Below, piece by piece: positions 1,057 through 62,831 of a stretch of DNA of 64,000 nucleotides. Location: assembly GCA_028697455.1 (NCBI GenBank), contig JAQVEZ010000001.1:67902-131901 (forward strand), written 5' to 3'. Origin of the DNA: Minisyncoccota bacterium (GTDB taxonomy: Bacteria > Patescibacteriota > Minisyncoccia > Phycocordibacterales > UBA1006). The notes under the pieces are model-generated. The model was not told the DNA's origin and did no database searches. It saw nothing but the letters and a program-made list of their open reading frames with translations. A program made the position numbers and the translations under genes. Within the stretch, counting starts at the first letter, position 1, and every line of letters starts with the position of its first letter.

Positions 1057-2304
1057 TTGTATACTGAATTTATGAACCTTAGCCAATACAAGAAAATAAC
1101 ACTACCACAAACACCGGGGGTTTATTTTTTTAAAAAAGGAAATACTATTTTATATATAGGAAAAGCAACGAATCTCGCCAATCGAACTAAAAGTTATTTT
1201 CAGGAAAACCTCATGGAAACACGAGGTCCCATTATTGCAAAAATGATAGAGGAGATTGATACTGTTGAGTGGAAAGAAACCGATTCGGTCCTCGAAGCTC
1301 TTATTCTTGAGTCTCACCTTATCAAACAACACCAGCCAGAATACAATACAAAAGAAAAAGATGATAAAAGTTATAACTACGTAGCAATAGGAAGTGAAGA
1401 TTTCCCAACAATTTCAATTCTTCGCGGGAAGGAACTTCTTCTTACACAATCTAAAAAAGAAAATAAATTTCTCTATACTTTTGGCCCTTTTCCACATAGG
1501 GACCAGCTTCAAGTTGCTCTGGGAATTTTGAGAAAAATTTTCCCTTTTTATTCTCAAAAAACTATTAAAAAATACTCAAAAGAATTTTATCGACAACTTG
1601 GGTTGATTCCAAGCCCAGGAGAGACTGATCAAAATTTTAGAGAAGAGTATCGAAAGAATATTGATTATCTTGCTCTTTTTTTTGAAGGGAAAAAGAAATC
1701 AATCCTTCAAAAATTAAAAAAAGAAATGAACGAGGCAGCGCAGAATCTTCATTTTGAAAAAGCGATGATTCGAAAACGTCAAATCGATGCGCTTGTACAT
1801 ATTCAAGATATTGCTCTCTTAAAACGAGATTTTGATTCCGTTTCTTATTTCCAGGAGTTTCGTATGGAGGCTTACGATATTGCTCATACCGAAGGGAAGT
1901 CAATGATTGGTGTTATGGTGGTTCATAATGGACGCGATTTTCGCTCAGATGAATATCGTGTTTTTAAAATAAAATCTCTCCAGAAAGCAAATGACACAGC
2001 AGCCCTTGCAGAAGTTTTGGAGAGACGGCTAGAACATAAGGAATGGCAATTTCCTACAATTATTATTGTCGACGGGGGTATCGCACAAAAACGTCGAGCA
2101 GAAAAAGTGCTGCGCGAACGAAATATAAAGATCCCTGTTATTGCTGTTGTTAAAGACGAGAGACACAAAGCAAAAGCCCTCCTTGGACAAAAAGGGCTTA
2201 TTCAAAAATATGAAAAAAGTATTATTGCAATTAATAATGAATCACACCGCTTTGCAATCTCTCAACATATCAAAAAACGATCAAAAGAGTTCTTACAAAG
2301 ATAA
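1057..2304 (+). CDS. uvrC: excinuclease ABC subunit C, compact form lacking the C-terminal (HhH)2 domain
   Basis: N-terminal GIY-YIG motif (PGVYFFKKGNTILYIGKATNLANRTKSYF...TRGPIIAKM...EALILESHLIKQHQPEYN). A UVR motif (LQKLKKEMNEAAQNLHFEKAMIRKRQIDAL). An RNase H-like endonuclease domain (YDIAHTEG...IIIVDGG...NESHRFAI). The protein is 415 aa and stops before any HhH region. Confidence 0.85.
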   Translation: MYTEFMNLSQYKKITLPQTPGVYFFKKGNTILYIGKATNLANRTKSYFQENLMETRGPIIAKMIEEIDTVEWKETDSVLEALILESHLIKQHQPEYNTKEKDDKSYNYVAIGSEDFPTISILRGKELLLTQSKKENKFLYTFGPFPHRDQLQVALGILRKIFPFYSQKTIKKYSKEFYRQLGLIPSPGETDQNFREEYRKNIDYLALFFEGKKKSILQKLKKEMNEAAQNLHFEKAMIRKRQIDALVHIQDIALLKRDFDSVSYFQEFRMEAYDIAHTEGKSMIGVMVVHNGRDFRSDEYRVFKIKSLQKANDTAALAEVLERRLEHKEWQFPTIIIVDGGIAQKRRAEKVLRERNIKIPVIAVVKDERHKAKALLGQKGLIQKYEKSIIAINNESHRFAISQHIKKRSKEFLQR

Positions 2305-2312
2305 AGACTTCT

Positions 2313-2996
2313 CTAGTATGAGAAGTCTTTATTCGCTCTTTCGAGGTGTTCGATAGTATTGATTGGTTTCCATGAAGTACAAACTACGGTAGTAACAGGG
2401 TAGTCATGAGTGTGGGCGACAAGTGTTTGAGGGATACCAATTTCTCCCCCCCAAACTTCACGAGGTTCGAAATCAAAGAAATTACTATCAAGTACATAGG
2501 CTCCCGTTGCGACAAGAGCGCCTTTTTCTTTTTCTTCATCTGTTTGTGGTTCAAATCGAGAGAGGAATCCTTCTTTACTTATTATTTTATAGTGCCCTGG
2601 GAGTATGGCGTGTTGTACCTGGAAGCTTCGCGAATGAAGAAGTAAATTTTCAAGGTCATGTTTTTTGATAAGGTCATCACCGTTTAATACAAGAAAACGC
2701 TCACCTTTGTTTATAAAAGGTTTGACAGAAAGAAGGGCAGCCCCAGTTCCTTTTTTATCGGGTATTTGTTGGATATAGTTAATTGAAAATGGATAGTTTT
2801 TGCTCTCTACAAAATCCCGAATCTTTTCTCCAAGGTAACCAACCACCAAAAAAACTTCAGTAATATTTTCTGGGAGTTCTCTCAAAATATATTCGAGAAT
2901 TGGCTTTCCTTGAACAAGGAGAAGTGTTTTAGGGGCTGTGTCAGTGAGAGGTTTTAATCGTGTTCCTCTTCCTGCACAAAGAATGATTGCTTTCAT
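2313..2996 (-). CDS. sugar-phosphate nucleotidyltransferase (NTP transferase family)
   Basis: MKAIILCAGRGTRLKPLTDTAPKTLL is the classic nucleotidyltransferase N-terminal motif. The listed ORF starts further upstream, but the internal ATG at 2996 fits this motif and avoids overlapping the NUDIX gene. Confidence 0.75.
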   Translation of the reverse strand: MKAIILCAGRGTRLKPLTDTAPKTLLLVQGKPILEYILRELPENITEVFLVVGYLGEKIRDFVESKNYPFSINYIQQIPDKKGTGAALLSVKPFINKGERFLVLNGDDLIKKHDLENLLLHSRSFQVQHAILPGHYKIISKEGFLSRFEPQTDEEKEKGALVATGAYVLDSNFFDFEPREVWGGEIGIPQTLVAHTHDYPVTTVVCTSWKPINTIEHLERANKDFSY

Positions 2997-3039
2997 TAAG
3001 ACCAAGTATAAGAAAAAGCGTTGCTTAATGCAACGCTGT

Positions 3040-3534
3040 TCAGTCTTGCCAGTGGAGATATTTTTTCCCCTGCCAGATAGAGCGATCTCTGAGAAGTCCC
3101 TCTTGAAGCTTGCAACTTTCTTGAAACTTAAGAAAAGTAAAATAAAGCCACAAGGGTCCAGAAGAAAAATCCTTCCAGTTATCCAGTATTTCAGAATATG
3201 AAAAGAATTTGAAATCTGAATGTTCATCACTGATATTGATGACTGGATTGTTTCGAAGAAAGAGACTGTGTAAAAAAACAAGCCCATTCTCTACGGGATA
3301 TATCTCCTGTATCCTCTTAGGAAGACGCTGTCCTAACACAGCAACGAGGTGCAAAGAATCCTTGTCTACGATAATGCCCGTTTCCTCTCTTATCTCCCTA
3401 ATTGAGACTGCTTTGTAATCAATTTCATTGACATCAAAGCCTCCCCCTGTAAGATCCCAGAGACCTGTATCTTTTCTCTTGAGGAAGAGAGCCCTTCCGT
3501 CCCAAGAGATAATGGTAAATGATCCATTTATCAT
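3040..3534 (-). CDS. NUDIX hydrolase
   Basis: Nudix box GG...VNEIDYKAVSIREIREETGI (GX5EX7REUXEEXGU pattern). Confidence 0.8.
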   Translation of the reverse strand: MINGSFTIISWDGRALFLKRKDTGLWDLTGGGFDVNEIDYKAVSIREIREETGIIVDKDSLHLVAVLGQRLPKRIQEIYPVENGLVFLHSLFLRNNPVINISDEHSDFKFFSYSEILDNWKDFSSGPLWLYFTFLKFQESCKLQEGLLRDRSIWQGKKYLHWQD

Positions 3535-3643
3535 TTTTTTAATTTATTTTTTATTAATATACCACTGAAGTAAATTTTAATCAACAAAAATAAAAACACC
3601 TTTTAAAAAGGTGATTTGTAAAGATTTCTTTTAAAAGGATTAG

Positions 3644-4408
3644 CTAATAGGTAGTACAACTTATTAACCCATAACCGTTGGTATAGCAATTAGTATTGTA
3701 GGTCTTTGGAATTGATGGGATAGTAAAAACTCCATCGCAAGCCTTACCTTGTTCAGAAAAAAGTAATGATTCTTCGCTAGAAAGAGTTAAAGCCTCTCTG
3801 CTGTATTCCATATACTTTAGAAAAGCAGAATCGCTATTATCTTTCTTATATGCTTTATAATAACTATCTGATTTATCTTGAGTTTTTTTCTTCTTTTCTT
3901 TAATATTTTCAAGTTGTTTAGTTGCTTCTCGACACTCAACACTATTTTTTCGTTCCTCCTGTTGTTTTAATAGATCATTTCCTCCTTCTCGTTGTTGGTT
4001 TATAGAATTAATGAGAGGGGAGGTACAATACGCTTGTCCCGATGAGGGGCAGAAAAATTCAGTTCCGATACTACAAGTATTGGTATAAGTAATCCCATTA
4101 CATTCTCTCAGGTCTTGTTGTTGACTTGGTATAACAACAGTAGGGACTTGCACTAGTGAAGTTTGGATGGTTGGTGTCGTTTGATTTTCTGAAGGAAAGG
4201 GCTCACTATCTTCTTGCTCTATAGTAATAGACTCTTCAGTTGGTGGTACTTTTACAGTTTCTGAAATTTGGGTTTCAGTATGTTGTCTCATGAAAATATT
4301 CCAAATTTTCCAAGTAGTTGGGTTCCACCACACAGCGAAAGTAACCTGTGGTATTATCAACAGAGTGATCACAAAAATAAAGATAAATTTCTTAGTTTTT
4401 TTGTCCAT
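3644..4408 (-). CDS. secreted or membrane-anchored cysteine-rich protein, unknown function
   Basis: N-terminal hydrophobic segment (FIFIFVITLLIIPQVTFA) and a C-terminal half with 12 Cys in CxxxxxxxC-type spacing. The start is taken at MDKKTKK to avoid overlapping tRNA-Ala. Confidence 0.6.
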   Translation of the reverse strand: MDKKTKKFIFIFVITLLIIPQVTFAVWWNPTTWKIWNIFMRQHTETQISETVKVPPTEESITIEQEDSEPFPSENQTTPTIQTSLVQVPTVVIPSQQQDLRECNGITYTNTCSIGTEFFCPSSGQAYCTSPLINSINQQREGGNDLLKQQEERKNSVECREATKQLENIKEKKKKTQDKSDSYYKAYKKDNSDSAFLKYMEYSREALTLSSEESLLFSEQGKACDGVFTIPSIPKTYNTNCYTNGYGLISCTTY

Positions 4409-21163: not shown

Positions 21164-21246
21164 ACAAAGTCTATTTTATCAGGTTTTGAGGAAAGAAAAA
21201 ACCACCTTTTTACAGATGGTTTTGTTCTGTGCTAAAGACGGGAGAT

Positions 21247-21528: not shown

Positions 21529-21580
21529 TTGTTGATATGTAAAAACAAAACCCTTCGTTTTCAGAAGAGTTTTTAGGTTT

Positions 21581-21733
21581 TTATTTTTTTTCTAACAACG
21601 ACACCAAAATTATGCCTAATATGTAGAGCATAACAGTAATGAGAAAAGTATCTAAAGATATTTCCTTTTTGATGTAGCCCCAACCGGCACCTACTACTAT
21701 TACAATAAGAACTGCGGTAAGTGTGTTACTCAT
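21581..21733 (-). CDS. putative 50-aa two-TM micro-protein
   Basis: MSNTLTAVLIVIVVGAGWGYIKKEISLDTFLITVMLYILGIILVSLLEKK. It lies between aspS and the 93-aa ORF and is not in the ORF track because it is shorter than 60 aa. Confidence 0.3.
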   Translation of the reverse strand: MSNTLTAVLIVIVVGAGWGYIKKEISLDTFLITVMLYILGIILVSLLEKK

Positions 21734-21839
21734 TGTTTTTTTCACCATTTGTTTTTTTTGATTTTCTTGATAAGATAATGCACTATTCTAATTTGTTTGT
21801 CAAATCATTACGAATAAAAATAAAACCTCTAAACAGGTT

Positions 21840-23261: not shown

Positions 23262-23276
23262 ATATTGTTTTAATTA

Positions 23277-24167
23277 TTAATCTTCAATGAAAAAATCTTC
23301 ATCAATTTCTTTTATAGAAAAAGTTTCCTTAATTTGAACTCCTAAATTATATTTAATCATTAGGTCTACTAATTTATCACCATTGATTAATATAATTTTA
23401 TGATTTCTTGCATCCCTTACTTTTTCTAAGGCTGCCTTATCAAAATCTGAAGTAGTAACAAAAATTCCTTTTGAGACATCACCAGACATTGCTCCAATAA
23501 AATTACGGATTTCTTTTTCTCCCACAAGGTTTGCTGTATATCTTTTTGCCTGAGTATAAATTCTCTCAACCCCTAAAGCATCTTGATTGATAATCCCATC
23601 AATTCCACCATCCCCAGATTTTTTTGTTTCTTGAAAATCTCCATAACCCATTTTTTGAAAAAGTTTTAAAATTATCTTTTCAAAATAATATGGATTTGAA
23701 ACTTTTAATTTTTCCAATAATTCAATTTTTAAATTCTCTTCAATATCAGCATATCCAACTTCAATCATTTCTTGAGATGACAAATCAGTGACTTTTATAT
23801 TTTCGTTATTTTCAGATTTTTTATTTTTTTGATATTTTTGAAAATCGAAATCATTTTGTATATATTCTTTTGTTAAATTTATCCCCTCCTTAAGAATATT
23901 TAATCCTTTATCGGTAATTTTTACATATCCTCTTTCTGGATAATCAACCATTTTTGCTACACGTAATTTTGATTTTGCGAAATGAATACGATTAAGTAAT
24001 GTATTGTCACCATTTTTTGGATTAACTCTATTTAAAACTTCTTCTGGCAAATGTGAATAAAAAGTATCTCTTACTTTTTCTTCAAGGTCTTTTCTGTGTA
24101 AAGTTTCTCCATTACTCAAAATCTTAAGTACTGGGATATATATTTCGTGGTATTTTGGCATTTCCAT
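23277..24167 (-). CDS. mrr: Mrr-like type IV (modification-dependent) restriction endonuclease
   Basis: An Mrr_N winged helix (PKYHEIYIPVLKIL...NRIHFAKSKL). An Mrr_cat domain (YYFEKIILKLFQKMGY...SGDGGIDGII...YTQAKRY...KGIFVTTSDF...LVDLMIKYNLGV) that aligns closely with E. coli Mrr. The track ORF begins at a TTG codon inside the T-box terminator, so the first ATG (MEMPKYHEI) is preferred. Confidence 0.85.
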   Translation of the reverse strand: MEMPKYHEIYIPVLKILSNGETLHRKDLEEKVRDTFYSHLPEEVLNRVNPKNGDNTLLNRIHFAKSKLRVAKMVDYPERGYVKITDKGLNILKEGINLTKEYIQNDFDFQKYQKNKKSENNENIKVTDLSSQEMIEVGYADIEENLKIELLEKLKVSNPYYFEKIILKLFQKMGYGDFQETKKSGDGGIDGIINQDALGVERIYTQAKRYTANLVGEKEIRNFIGAMSGDVSKGIFVTTSDFDKAALEKVRDARNHKIILINGDKLVDLMIKYNLGVQIKETFSIKEIDEDFFIED

Positions 24168-24189
24168 AATATTTTTATATTCTATTTGC

Positions 24190-24395
24190 AAACAAAAAAT
24201 CGTCCGCAATCGATTAACTTATAATCTCTTGCAGGGACGATTTTGGATAACCGCGGTGCCACCCTGATTCCTGATGTGTATCAAGCGCTCTTTATTATTA
24301 GTCCAAAAATATCCTTAGACTTAATTTTTCACCTCAGCTGTGTCAAAGCGTCGTTGGTACATAAAATATAACAAAAATAAGCAAAAAAGAAAAGA
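24190..24395 (-). promoter_or_regulatory. T-box riboswitch leader (likely Asp-specific) upstream of mrr-aspS
   Basis: On the minus strand, AGGGUGGCACCGCGG at 24251-24265 matches the T-box consensus AGGGUGGNACCGCG exactly. The variable position C would pair with G73 of tRNA-Asp. A terminator helix AAAATCGTCC(CTGCAA)...(TTGC)GGACGATTTT with a U-tract follows at 24196-24244. Upstream there is a short stem I-like helix containing GGACUAA (GAC is an Asp codon). Confidence 0.55.
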
Positions 24396-24405
24396 TAGCA
24401 AAAAG

Positions 24406-24615
24406 CTATCTTTCTTTATAATTTTTATACATATCGGAGTTATCATTTCCAGAATAGAGATCATCAACTTCTTCCTTTGTTAAACCGAAACCATCAACGT
24501 CTTTTGGCTTCTCTGTGCCTGTTGGCTTTTGTTCTTGTTCTTGCTTTGGAGAAGAATTTTTACTTTCTGAATCCTTTTTTACTCTTTCTTCTTTTTGTGG
24601 TTTAAAATTTTCCAT
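24406..24615 (-). CDS. small acidic, low-complexity protein, unknown function
   Basis: A 69-aa K/E/S/D-rich protein on the same strand, downstream of the two paralogs. Confidence 0.4.
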   Translation of the reverse strand: MENFKPQKEERVKKDSESKNSSPKQEQEQKPTGTEKPKDVDGFGLTKEEVDDLYSGNDNSDMYKNYKER

Positions 24616-24672: not shown

Positions 24673-25152
24673 CTATATGCCACTTTCTCTTTTTTCCAGC
24701 TCTTCTCTTATAAGACTCGCTACTTCGTAATCCTCATCCTCGAGTACTTTTTGAAGCTTGGTCTGAAGTTTCTTTTTGGAATAATAAGGAATGTCTTTTG
24801 CTTCAAATAGAGCCTCGGTATCAATGATTAAAAAGTTGTGGGTAGAAAGTTTTATAAACCCAGGGTGATCCTCAAGAGAATCATACATCTCATCAAAGAG
24901 TATTACTTCGTACTCTTCAAAGTAATCCCCAAAATCAAAAAAGTATGTCCCTTCTTCTCCGAGTTCTGCTGTGCCCAAATATGCCTCTTCTAAAAAATCA
25001 CCTTTGTTTTCTGAAACAAGAAGAAATTTTGGAATAAAAATATTCTTGAGCGTAATGATGATACTCTGAACATCAAAAAAGACTTTTGAACCTTGCTGTA
25101 TTCCGCCAAGAGTATTCTCGGGGAAAAAACCTTGAATTTTTATAGTGCTCAT
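24673..25152 (-). CDS. uncharacterised protein with C-terminal UVR-like motif (paralog 1)
   Basis: Shares TIKxxG...NIFIP(K/R)(F/Y)L and a C-terminal LQKVLEDEDYEVASLIREELEKRE with the adjacent gene. The C-terminal 30 aa resemble the UvrB/UvrC UVR motif. Confidence 0.6.
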   Translation of the reverse strand: MSTIKIQGFFPENTLGGIQQGSKVFFDVQSIIITLKNIFIPKFLLVSENKGDFLEEAYLGTAELGEEGTYFFDFGDYFEEYEVILFDEMYDSLEDHPGFIKLSTHNFLIIDTEALFEAKDIPYYSKKKLQTKLQKVLEDEDYEVASLIREELEKRESGI

Positions 25153-25209: not shown

Positions 25210-25701
25210 CTAATGACCCGCTCTGTTTTTTTTGAGTTTTTTAAGTTCATCCCTCACCATCGCTGCATAATCATAGTCTTCGTCTTGCAGGGCTTTCTCA
25301 AGGTCGTGCTCAAGGGTTTCAATTTCTTTTTCTTCAATTCTCGCCTCGTGATAGTATTGGATCTCATATTCTTTTCTTGGGACAGTGATATACATCCCAG
25401 ATCTGAAGAGTTTTGGTTCAATATCTTCAGTAAAGATAGGTTGATAACCTAATTTTTCAATTCCTTCAAAAAAGACACTAAACGAACCCGAACTATCTTT
25501 TGTTACGGCAATGGTTGCTGGAGCCCCTTCAAAAGTTTGGTAAAGTGCTTCAGGTGAAGTAAATACCCCAAGATATCTTGGTATGAAGATATTATTGTTT
25601 GTGATAATAACATGACTATACAAACAATACCTTGTAGTATTTGCCTCCATTGTTTCGAGGGTCTCTCCTGTATACCATCCTTTTATTGTTAGCATTTTCA
25701 A
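25210..25701 (-). CDS. uncharacterised protein with C-terminal UVR-like motif (paralog 2)
   Basis: Homologous to 24673-25152 (TIKGWYTGETL...NIFIPRYL ... LEKALQDEDYDYAAMVRDELKKLKK). Confidence 0.6.
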   Translation of the reverse strand: MKMLTIKGWYTGETLETMEANTTRYCLYSHVIITNNNIFIPRYLGVFTSPEALYQTFEGAPATIAVTKDSSGSFSVFFEGIEKLGYQPIFTEDIEPKLFRSGMYITVPRKEYEIQYYHEARIEEKEIETLEHDLEKALQDEDYDYAAMVRDELKKLKKNRAGH

Positions 25702-62792: not shown

Positions 62793-62831
62793 AAGTGTTA
62801 TTTTATCACAAAGAACAAAGAGGCCAAATTT

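Follow-up and report, generated by a model that had tools for sequence, protein, structure and literature searches.

Why would the gene for a restriction nuclease stand between a T-box riboswitch and the essential gene for aspartyl-tRNA synthetase (AspRS)? This order occurs on the minus strand of a 64,000-nucleotide stretch of a Minisyncoccota bacterium genome (assembly GCA_028697455.1, contig JAQVEZ010000001.1, positions 67,902 to 131,901), hereafter the window, in which an mrr gene separates a T-box leader of aspartate type from aspS. A sequence-only reading of this DNA had found the placement unexpected and had offered two causes, the insertion of a selfish gene at a site of guaranteed expression and the domestication of the nuclease. 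Our analysis favors the first. With a probability of roughly 0.7, mrr is an accessory gene in a "cargo slot" of a single T-box-mrr-aspS transcription unit, a slot that has been filled and emptied repeatedly within the clade, and nothing in the comparative data supports domestication. The position is indeed unusual, but it is no one-off, since a second lineage shares the layout and other junctions around aspS also vary. What is unusual is the placement between an Asp T-box and an essential synthetase; the enzyme itself is ordinary, and T-box operons and variable hotspots are both of known kinds.

The mechanism that we propose begins with a single unit that would comprise an extended -10 promoter, the Asp T-box leader, mrr, aspS, possibly a 55-aa open reading frame (ORF), and a terminator. 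Uncharged tRNA-Asp would pair with both the specifier GAC and the bulged UGGC of the leader, stabilizing the antiterminator and permitting read-through into mrr, and aspS would be translated from the same mRNA, 15 nt beyond mrr. With neither promoter nor terminator of its own, the nuclease gene would occupy a slot, about 20 nt long, that separates the terminator of the T-box from the start of aspS, and would encode an apparently active solitary enzyme, a winged helix joined to a PD-(D/E)XK nuclease with E...D...QxK residues, that cuts modified foreign DNA. Any cargo in this position would be expressed without regulatory parts of its own, because aspS is essential and some read-through is always needed. 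Within this Paceibacteria clade, such a slot would have gained, lost, and regained cargo time and again.

A variable cargo slot between the T-box and aspS

We gathered relatives of aspS from one-genome-per-species and metagenome collections and compared about 160 related aspS loci. In many of them additional DNA separates the T-box motif from aspS, and tblastn found the window's Mrr in none, so that the comparison of related genomes proposed by the sequence-only reading revealed a gap that lacks mrr in these relatives and is variably occupied. Among lineages with at least 70% AspRS identity, which define the clade for our slot counts, the slot is empty in about 15, with aspS directly after the terminator and 47-137 nt from T-box motif to ATG, and is occupied in about 19 by one to three same-strand ORFs from about 14 unrelated cargo families. 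This pattern fits the insertion of accessory or selfish genes at a site of guaranteed expression. Occupancy is patchy on the neighbor-joining AspRS tree, and the slots of deeper relatives (57-65% AspRS identity) are mostly empty.

The cargo itself is diverse. In an all-against-all BLAST, just two families had more than one member, namely a small membrane protein (L002, L010, L004, and L005) and a HAD-like protein (L014 and L024, plus a 66-aa remnant in L123); everything else was a singleton. Pfam identified a serine hydrolase (L013), a HIT protein (L014), an SDR protein (L006), and a YbaK-type tRNA-editing domain (L071), together with weak, below-cutoff HEPN/DUF4145 matches in L017, L019, and L105. 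Two or three genes share the slot in L014, L071, L002, and L085; the L085 slot (1454-3001) holds genes for a 39-aa hydrophobic peptide, a glyoxalase/VOC protein, and a 327-aa Mrr_cat protein (E 4.6e-18) whose unrecognized N-terminal domain might be a modification reader. Counted within the slots alone, defence-type cargo amounts to three nucleases of Mrr_cat type plus HEPN-like/DUF4145 matches, all weak, in three or four cases, and the remainder is non-defence. In every case the GC content of the cargo lies below that of aspS.

Turnover can be seen between two near-identical genomes, L094 (~330-529) and L096 (~160-641), whose leader and aspS flanks are 96-99% identical but whose slots do not hold the same content; similarity breaks off immediately behind a start codon common to both and resumes just short of aspS, which shows that slot turnover is recent and sharply bounded. 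No target-site duplications, terminal inverted repeats, or attC-like sites were found around mrr, where only chance AT-rich repeats occur and none brackets the gene, and no recombinase, integrase, or transposase family appeared among the scanned neighboring ORFs, which were part of the window's ORFs. As no mobile-element signatures were seen there, the most plausible route for the exchange of cargo would be uptake of DNA followed by recombination in the conserved leader and aspS sequences on either side. Patescibacteria possess competence and homologous-recombination genes, and their gene exchange takes place mostly within the phylum (PMC12455944); exchange through conserved flanks would thus be plausible.

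The layout recurs in a second lineage, represented by loci from two independent samples, L162 and L163, each with a T-box, mrr, 8 nt, and aspS, and with surrounding genes that differ from those of the window. They encode the closest full-length homologue of the window's Mrr (P0004, 58% identical). Between window and L162, AspRS is 78% identical, the catalytic half of Mrr 83%, and its N-terminal half 35%, and third codon positions are saturated in both genes (identity 0.59 in mrr and 0.52 in aspS). Given this saturation, we found no sign of a recent mrr transfer between the two lineages, and the split between their mrr genes appears old. A catalytic half that remains 83% identical while third codon positions are saturated indicates purifying selection on it. 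Mrr is missing from the nearest relatives by AspRS, both those of the window (81%) and those of L162 (88%). The insertion into the window's lineage cannot be dated, because its best AspRS relatives in the genome and metagenome collections reach only 81% and none of them carries Mrr.

Several observations weigh against the cargo-slot reading. Within the conserved backbone spoU-trpS-(129-aa ORF)...T-box-aspS...scpA-scpB-glycosyltransferase, all three junctions around aspS are variable (trpS-to-leader 0.1-2.2 kb, aspS-to-scpA 0.02-3.7 kb), and "hotspot" may describe the whole neighborhood around aspS. Our AspRS and Mrr trees are neighbor-joining trees only and poorly resolved, so that gain is not firmly separable from ancestral presence and loss. 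The very low GC content at third codon positions (GC3) of mrr is common to the old L162 copy, which leaves a recent acquisition unproven. Finally, the genome is AT-rich and its promoters appear to stand very close to start codons, so that a weak internal promoter is possible, whether TGATAAATT at 23379-23371 or TAGAAT at 24184-24179. We regard the slot as part of a variable neighborhood, from which it is distinct by lying inside a regulated transcription unit.

A more far-reaching version of the cargo-slot reading would make this a dedicated single-site cassette slot, in which riboswitch and aspS, acting as homology arms, allow promoterless genes for accessory or defence functions to be swapped between relatives, the cassettes come under tRNA-Asp-charging control, and nuclease dosage is tied to translational stress; we put this forward tentatively, as a suggestion with some chance of being right.

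An ancestral, longer T-box operon that decayed by differential loss, with Mrr as one of its original members, could also have produced a patchy slot. It would fit the recurrence of the same cargo in non-sister lineages (HAD-like protein in L014, L024, and L123, Mrr in the window and L162, and membrane protein in L002, L010, L004, and L005), the divergence of this recurring cargo, which is as deep as or deeper than that of AspRS, the remnant in L123, and the slots with two or three genes. Such an ancestor would, however, have needed about 14 unrelated genes in the slot, and the recent turnover between L094 and L096, the compositional outlier status of mrr in the window (z = -3.5), and the mostly empty slots of deeper relatives all count against it, making decay in our judgment unlikely.

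Two side observations concern the neighborhood of the slot. An Mrr_cat-type ORF (custom hidden Markov model, E 2.7e-13) lies in L005 at 3-845 on the plus strand, just upstream of the conserved 129-aa ORF and thus at a different junction. Some lineages have lost or rearranged the linkage between T-box and aspS, because L015 (~2739-3995) contains no T-box motif, and aspS there follows two ORFs that we read by eye as the ribosomal protein genes rplW and rplB.

An atypical T-box leader with aspartate specificity

The T-box that the sequence-only reading had placed upstream of mrr is real. A local search of Rfam model RF00230 with an E-value threshold detected it at 24428..24230 (44.2 bits, E 1.7e-8), below the model's gathering score of 93 bits, and the default scan of the window at gathering thresholds returned tRNAs only and no T-box. 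The score is low because 18 nt replace 71 Stem I positions of the model. Related leaders score 36-59 bits, likewise with significant E-values and below the gathering score. Because such leaders fall below the Rfam threshold, T-boxes in Patescibacteria are probably under-annotated, and our search of the accessible literature found no paper linking T-boxes with CPR (candidate phyla radiation) bacteria or Patescibacteria.

The leader contains the only T-box motif in the window, with the sequence GGGUGGCACCGCG at 24264-24252. In the antiterminator a 5-bp helix and a 6-bp helix enclose the 7-nt bulge UGGCACC; UGGC, almost invariant at this position in related leaders, is predicted to pair with the GCCA at the 3' end of the tRNA. 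A strong intrinsic terminator competes with this fold (-21.6 kcal/mol, z = -5.9; none of 200 shuffles folds as well), with the 5' arm AAAAUCGUCC common to the two mutually exclusive structures. This terminator is the reason that the leader appears to act on transcription. From the end of its stem at 24196 to the ATG of mrr at 24167 there are exactly 28 nt, and both this spacing and the 15 nt between mrr and aspS agree precisely with the sequence-only reading. In related leaders the promoter motif TGnTAnAAT stands 8-9 nt before a conserved ACCAAYGA.

Stem I of the window's leader has 3 bp and is capped by a 7-nt loop, in which the specifier GAC (24344-24342) is followed by A (24341). The aspartate specificity assigned by the sequence-only reading is supported by comparison with 43 distinct leaders cut out of the aspS relatives: the specifier is GAC in 38/43 and GAU in 5/43, with a purine as the next base in all. 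A synonymous exchange of GAC and GAU at a fixed loop position is the expected behavior of a specifier codon. Compensatory changes (U-A, G-C, A-U) occur in the closing pairs of the window's own leader class; deeper relatives have a 4-bp stem and a 6-nt loop, with GCAG/CUGC versus GCGG/CCGC stems, and one subclade carries an AUGAYAA loop. Pair types were counted by hand, a fixed 7-nt-loop model being unfit for all leader classes.

These leaders thus present the specifier in the terminal loop of a 3-4 bp hairpin and have no distal platform for the tRNA elbow (AG bulge and distal loop). A review describes the Stem I platform as essential in transcriptional T-boxes and associates ultrashort Stem I elements with translational actinobacterial T-boxes (PMC7583486). 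We read the leaders as genuine but atypical T-boxes, for which tRNA-dependent antitermination is predicted.

Variation among the leaders includes L012 (~3954-4001; also L099 and L133), in which a mere 47 nt separate the T-box motif from the ATG of aspS, with no evident terminator hairpin; leaders of this type may be translational or degenerate variants inside the same clade. In L096 an extra GC-rich hairpin of about 40 nt is found within the antiterminator loop, and similar loop insertions are present in L014 and L067.

A probable single transcription unit from leader to synthetase

Co-transcription of mrr with aspS, claimed by the sequence-only reading, gained support from the junction and from the absence of a strict promoter, and stays an inference. 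No terminator-like structure was found when the mrr-aspS junction was folded: the spacer reaches -2.2 kcal/mol (z = 0.4), the same as its shuffles. The strict extended -10 motif TGnTAnAAT is absent between leader and aspS, both in mrr and just before it. On the minus strand of the window this motif occurs at 62808, 57940, 39792, 29843, 28031, 21181, 14519, and 7067, 10-20 nt before start codons or a tRNA gene, which suggests that this genome has very short or absent 5' leaders and makes little use of -35 elements. The motif at 21181 belongs to scpA and lies beyond a terminator-like hairpin, the first one past aspS, at which the transcription unit probably ends.

The relatives show the same economy. 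Past the terminator, GACGAUUUUUUGUUUGC and about 10-25 nt lead to the start codon of aspS or of a cargo ORF, and the cargo ORFs all end 2-28 nt before aspS, leaving no room for signals of their own. We therefore infer that mrr and aspS are co-transcribed from the leader, with Mrr likewise under T-box control; read-through is the simpler explanation, because promoters and terminators of their own would otherwise need to evolve inside many unrelated cargo genes.

The competing possibility is that mrr, aspS, or both are expressed from promoters of their own, over the terminator tail or the 3' end of mrr, with the T-box linkage a mere adjacency. The region is AT-rich and rich in -10-like hexamers, among them the TAGAAT, the relaxed extended -10 TGATAAATT inside mrr, and TTCAAA-18-GATAAT at 23700-23671, and other genes of the window have their extended -10 motif only ~10-20 nt before the start codon. 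Sigma-70-like matches nevertheless occur at chance level (13 found, 12.7 expected), none has the strict form, and the site at 23379 is not conserved in L162. An internal promoter would, moreover, have arisen independently in about 14 unrelated cargo genes, and the T-box is fully intact in occupied loci, implying continuing selection. We consider independent promoters unlikely.

The synthetase in the unit is a bacterial-type AspRS by matches at equivalog level (NF001750, 607 bits against a cutoff of 443; TIGR00459, 554 against 374). It matches the 590-position NF001750 model in two stretches, with the OB anticodon-binding domain and the class II core present, and apparently lacks the large insertion (GAD-type) domain, as do all its Patescibacteria relatives (~465-486 aa).

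The nuclease and its relatives

The cargo in the window's slot is, as the sequence-only reading had proposed, an Mrr-type protein. The homology check gave Pfam Mrr_N (PF14338) at residues 6-94 (E 1.1e-19; 70.8 bits against a cutoff of 29.5) and the PD-(D/E)XK domain Mrr_cat (PF04471) at residues 158-270 (E 3.8e-34), and the PADLOC model mREase_IV, for type IV methyl-directed restriction enzymes, matches the full length (E 1.2e-50). The proposed collinearity with E. coli Mrr holds from end to end (EcoKMrr of strain MG1655, 28% identity, E 2e-29), and the motifs named earlier are present: in alignments of 7 and 33 homologues, E163 (FE163), GDGGIDG at 185-191 (D186/D190), Q206-A-K208 (QAKR 206-209), and FVTTS are invariant, EcoKMrr included. 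The start at 24167 (MEMPKYHE...) agrees with the N-termini of homologues (MELPKYHE...). Flanked by the leader and aspS, the gene is solitary, with no cognate methyltransferase beside it. In the AlphaFold model the mean predicted local distance difference test score (pLDDT) is 79.6, with 84-97 in the winged-helix domain Mrr_N. Taken together, these features describe an intact, ordinary type IV restriction enzyme, whose nuclease activity and modification dependence we deduce from its residues and domains.

The exact Mrr protein is deposited at NCBI as a restriction endonuclease of a 'Candidatus Pacebacteria' metagenome-assembled genome (MAG), and the AspRS search identified the host's relatives as Paceibacteria/Patescibacteria MAGs, so that the CPR label given by the sequence-only reading was correct; an exact-sequence look-up of the window's AspRS returned no match. 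Other homologues of the protein are at most 60% identical over their full length, many of them from Bacteroidota. In composition mrr is the lowest of the window's 63 ORFs (GC 27.0%, GC3 15.2%, z about -3.5). We did not accept this low GC as proving that the gene was acquired horizontally in recent times, since the L162 copy, which diverged long ago, is just as AT-rich; the low GC marks an accessory gene, not a recent arrival.

On the neighbor-joining tree of catalytic domains, the window's Mrr and P0004 are weakly sister within a clade that includes P0121, P0133, and P0010, with P0122 and P0123 as sister to that clade. P0121 (L166) and P0133 come from genomes that have recoded UGA, as seen from an in-frame TGA at a conserved Trp in L166 and a W in place of a conserved G in P0133, which suggests that their hosts are Gracilibacteria-like, Absconditabacteria-like, or another recoded lineage. 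P0010, P0121, P0122, and P0123 are not next to aspS: P0122 and P0123 adjoin LexA-methylase fusions and ThsB-TIR, the latter also Endonuclease VII, P0010 adjoins an apparent KAP-type P-loop NTPase (assigned by motif only), and P0121 follows an apparent RNase Y gene.

The two halves of the protein have different affinities. The window's catalytic domain is closest to this Patescibacteria-type clade (81-83%), and its N-terminal domain is 47-52% identical to a Bacteroidota-type group versus 32% to P0004. This contrast suggests that the DNA-binding domain of Mrr has a history separate from that of the nuclease domain, through either domain exchange or fast diversification of target recognition.

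If the linkage were adaptive, Mrr would be raised under translational stress, such as starvation or phage takeover, as a domesticated member of the aspS regulon. Mrr_cat nucleases in the slots of three lineages (the window, L162/L163, and L085), weak HEPN-like matches in three or four more, and an old mrr-aspS pair in window and L162, whose synonymous sites are saturated, would suit this idea. Most cargo, however, bears no sign of a defence role (membrane, HAD-like, HIT, serine hydrolase, SDR, VOC, and YbaK-like proteins), the closest relatives of Mrr outside the slot stand in ordinary defence-island contexts, and the closest AspRS relatives of the window and L162 do without Mrr, so that we regard it as very unlikely.

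A chimeric assembly or a dead nuclease gene is hardly credible: the source is a MAG and the protein has a weaker Pfam match to the 'inactive restriction endonuclease' family NA-iREase1, but we rejected a chimera on the same junctions, 100% identical, in the Logan assembly L001 (possibly built from the same reads) and on the same architecture in the two unrelated samples of L162 and L163, and a pseudogene or inactive nuclease on the full-length ORF, the conservation of all catalytic residues, and the purifying selection indicated for the catalytic domain.

Comparison with known systems

EcoKMrr (b4351) shares with the window's Mrr the collinear Mrr_N and Mrr_cat domains, identical E...GDGGIDG...QAKR residues, and a solitary state without a cognate methylase. 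It differs in context, as E. coli mrr forms its own unit beside hsdR in the hsd or 'immigration control' region, whereas the gene described here lies within a riboswitch-controlled operon for an aminoacyl-tRNA synthetase (aaRS), and in its N-terminal domain, which is only ~19% identical and varies sharply even among close relatives. The catalytic domain resembles those of MspJI (4F0P) and AspBHI (4OC8), the best PDB matches of the AlphaFold model in a Foldseek search, and the AspBHI catalytic domain is the only solved structure matched by sequence. Only about 140 residues align with these two enzymes, however. MspJI and AspBHI read DNA through SRA-like N-terminal domains, and the window's protein has Mrr_N instead.

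Like the transcriptional T-boxes of Bacillota described by RF00230, the leader has a T-box sequence, an antiterminator with a 7-nt UGGN bulge, a competing terminator, and a specifier matching the downstream synthetase; unlike them, it has a Stem I of 3-4 bp, no elbow platform, and a score below gathering. More distant relatives of the leader keep, by our reading by eye, an apparent Stem II S-turn and IIA/B region. The truncated Stem I without the interdigitated double T-loop motif (IDTM) platform recalls the ultrashort-Stem-I T-boxes of actinobacterial ileS (Sherwood et al., 2015, as summarized in PMC7583486), which by that summary act on translation, in contrast to a leader with a strong intrinsic terminator. 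A gene placed between T-box and aspS is not without precedent, as Thermoflavimicrobium daqui (L073) has the order T-box (95.6 bits)-hisS-aspS. There the intervening gene encodes another aaRS, and here a restriction nuclease or unrelated cargo.

Hotspots flanked by core genes are chromosomal islands between conserved genes. The slot resembles them in its variable content, its recurring nuclease and HEPN-type genes, and its turnover between near-identical strains. In contrast to such islands, it holds one to three genes only, shows no tRNA attachment site or repeats and no integrase among the ORFs scanned, and lies inside a transcription unit, with a riboswitch upstream and an essential gene downstream. 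Cargo in this position consequently inherits the regulation of the unit and must not terminate transcription.

T-box regulons have been described as comprising genes for aminoacyl-tRNA synthetases and for the biosynthesis and transport of amino acids. A restriction nuclease and rotating accessory genes behind a T-box would extend this range, and our findings suggest that CPR bacteria, with their reduced genomes and few promoters, may place newly acquired genes in the transcription unit of an essential gene and so have them expressed.

Coordinates and other features of the locus

Features of the T-box-mrr-aspS unit and its borders, in order of transcription (positions of the window)
Feature	Position	Strand	Basis
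Intrinsic terminator belonging to the 69-aa ORF upstream; shields the T-box unit from transcription entering from that side	24390..24414	minus	terminator scan, minimum-free-energy fold
Extended -10 promoter of the leader, TGTTATATT; putative transcription start ~24358	24365..24373	minus	motif; candidate assignment
Asp-specific, apparently transcriptional T-box leader with ultrashort Stem I	24188..24358	minus	RF00230, 44.2 bits, E 1.7e-8
Stem I hairpin GCU / UUGACAC / AGC, flanked by GA (K-turn-like) motifs	24337..24349	minus	sequence reading
T-box sequence AGGGUGGCACCGCG	24252..24265	minus	RF00230 alignment, motif search
Intrinsic terminator of the leader; stem 24244-24196, U-run to ~24190	24190..24244	minus	fold; inverted repeat I23
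mrr, type IV (modification-dependent) restriction endonuclease, 296 aa	23277..24167	minus	Pfam, PADLOC, EcoKMrr alignment, motifs, structure model
Mrr_N domain	24152-23886	minus	Pfam PF14338
Mrr_cat domain	23696-23358	minus	Pfam PF04471
GDGGIDG...QAKRY motifs	23615-23538	minus	sequence
mrr-aspS spacer, 15 nt; no hairpin, no room for promoter and terminator	23262..23276	minus	coordinates, fold
aspS, bacterial-type aspartate--tRNA ligase, 473 aa	21840..23261	minus	Pfam tRNA_anti-codon and tRNA-synt_2, NCBIfam
First terminator-like hairpin downstream of aspS, after the 55-aa ORF 21748..21581	21547..21573	minus	terminator scan

In the variable zone upstream of the T-box, two adjacent minus-strand ORFs of 159 and 163 aa (24673-25152 and 25210-25701) look paralogous by eye (NIFIPKFL versus NIFIPRYL). 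They share a similar acidic C-terminal helix, which in the 163-aa ORF gives a UVR-motif Pfam match, the only family match of the pair.

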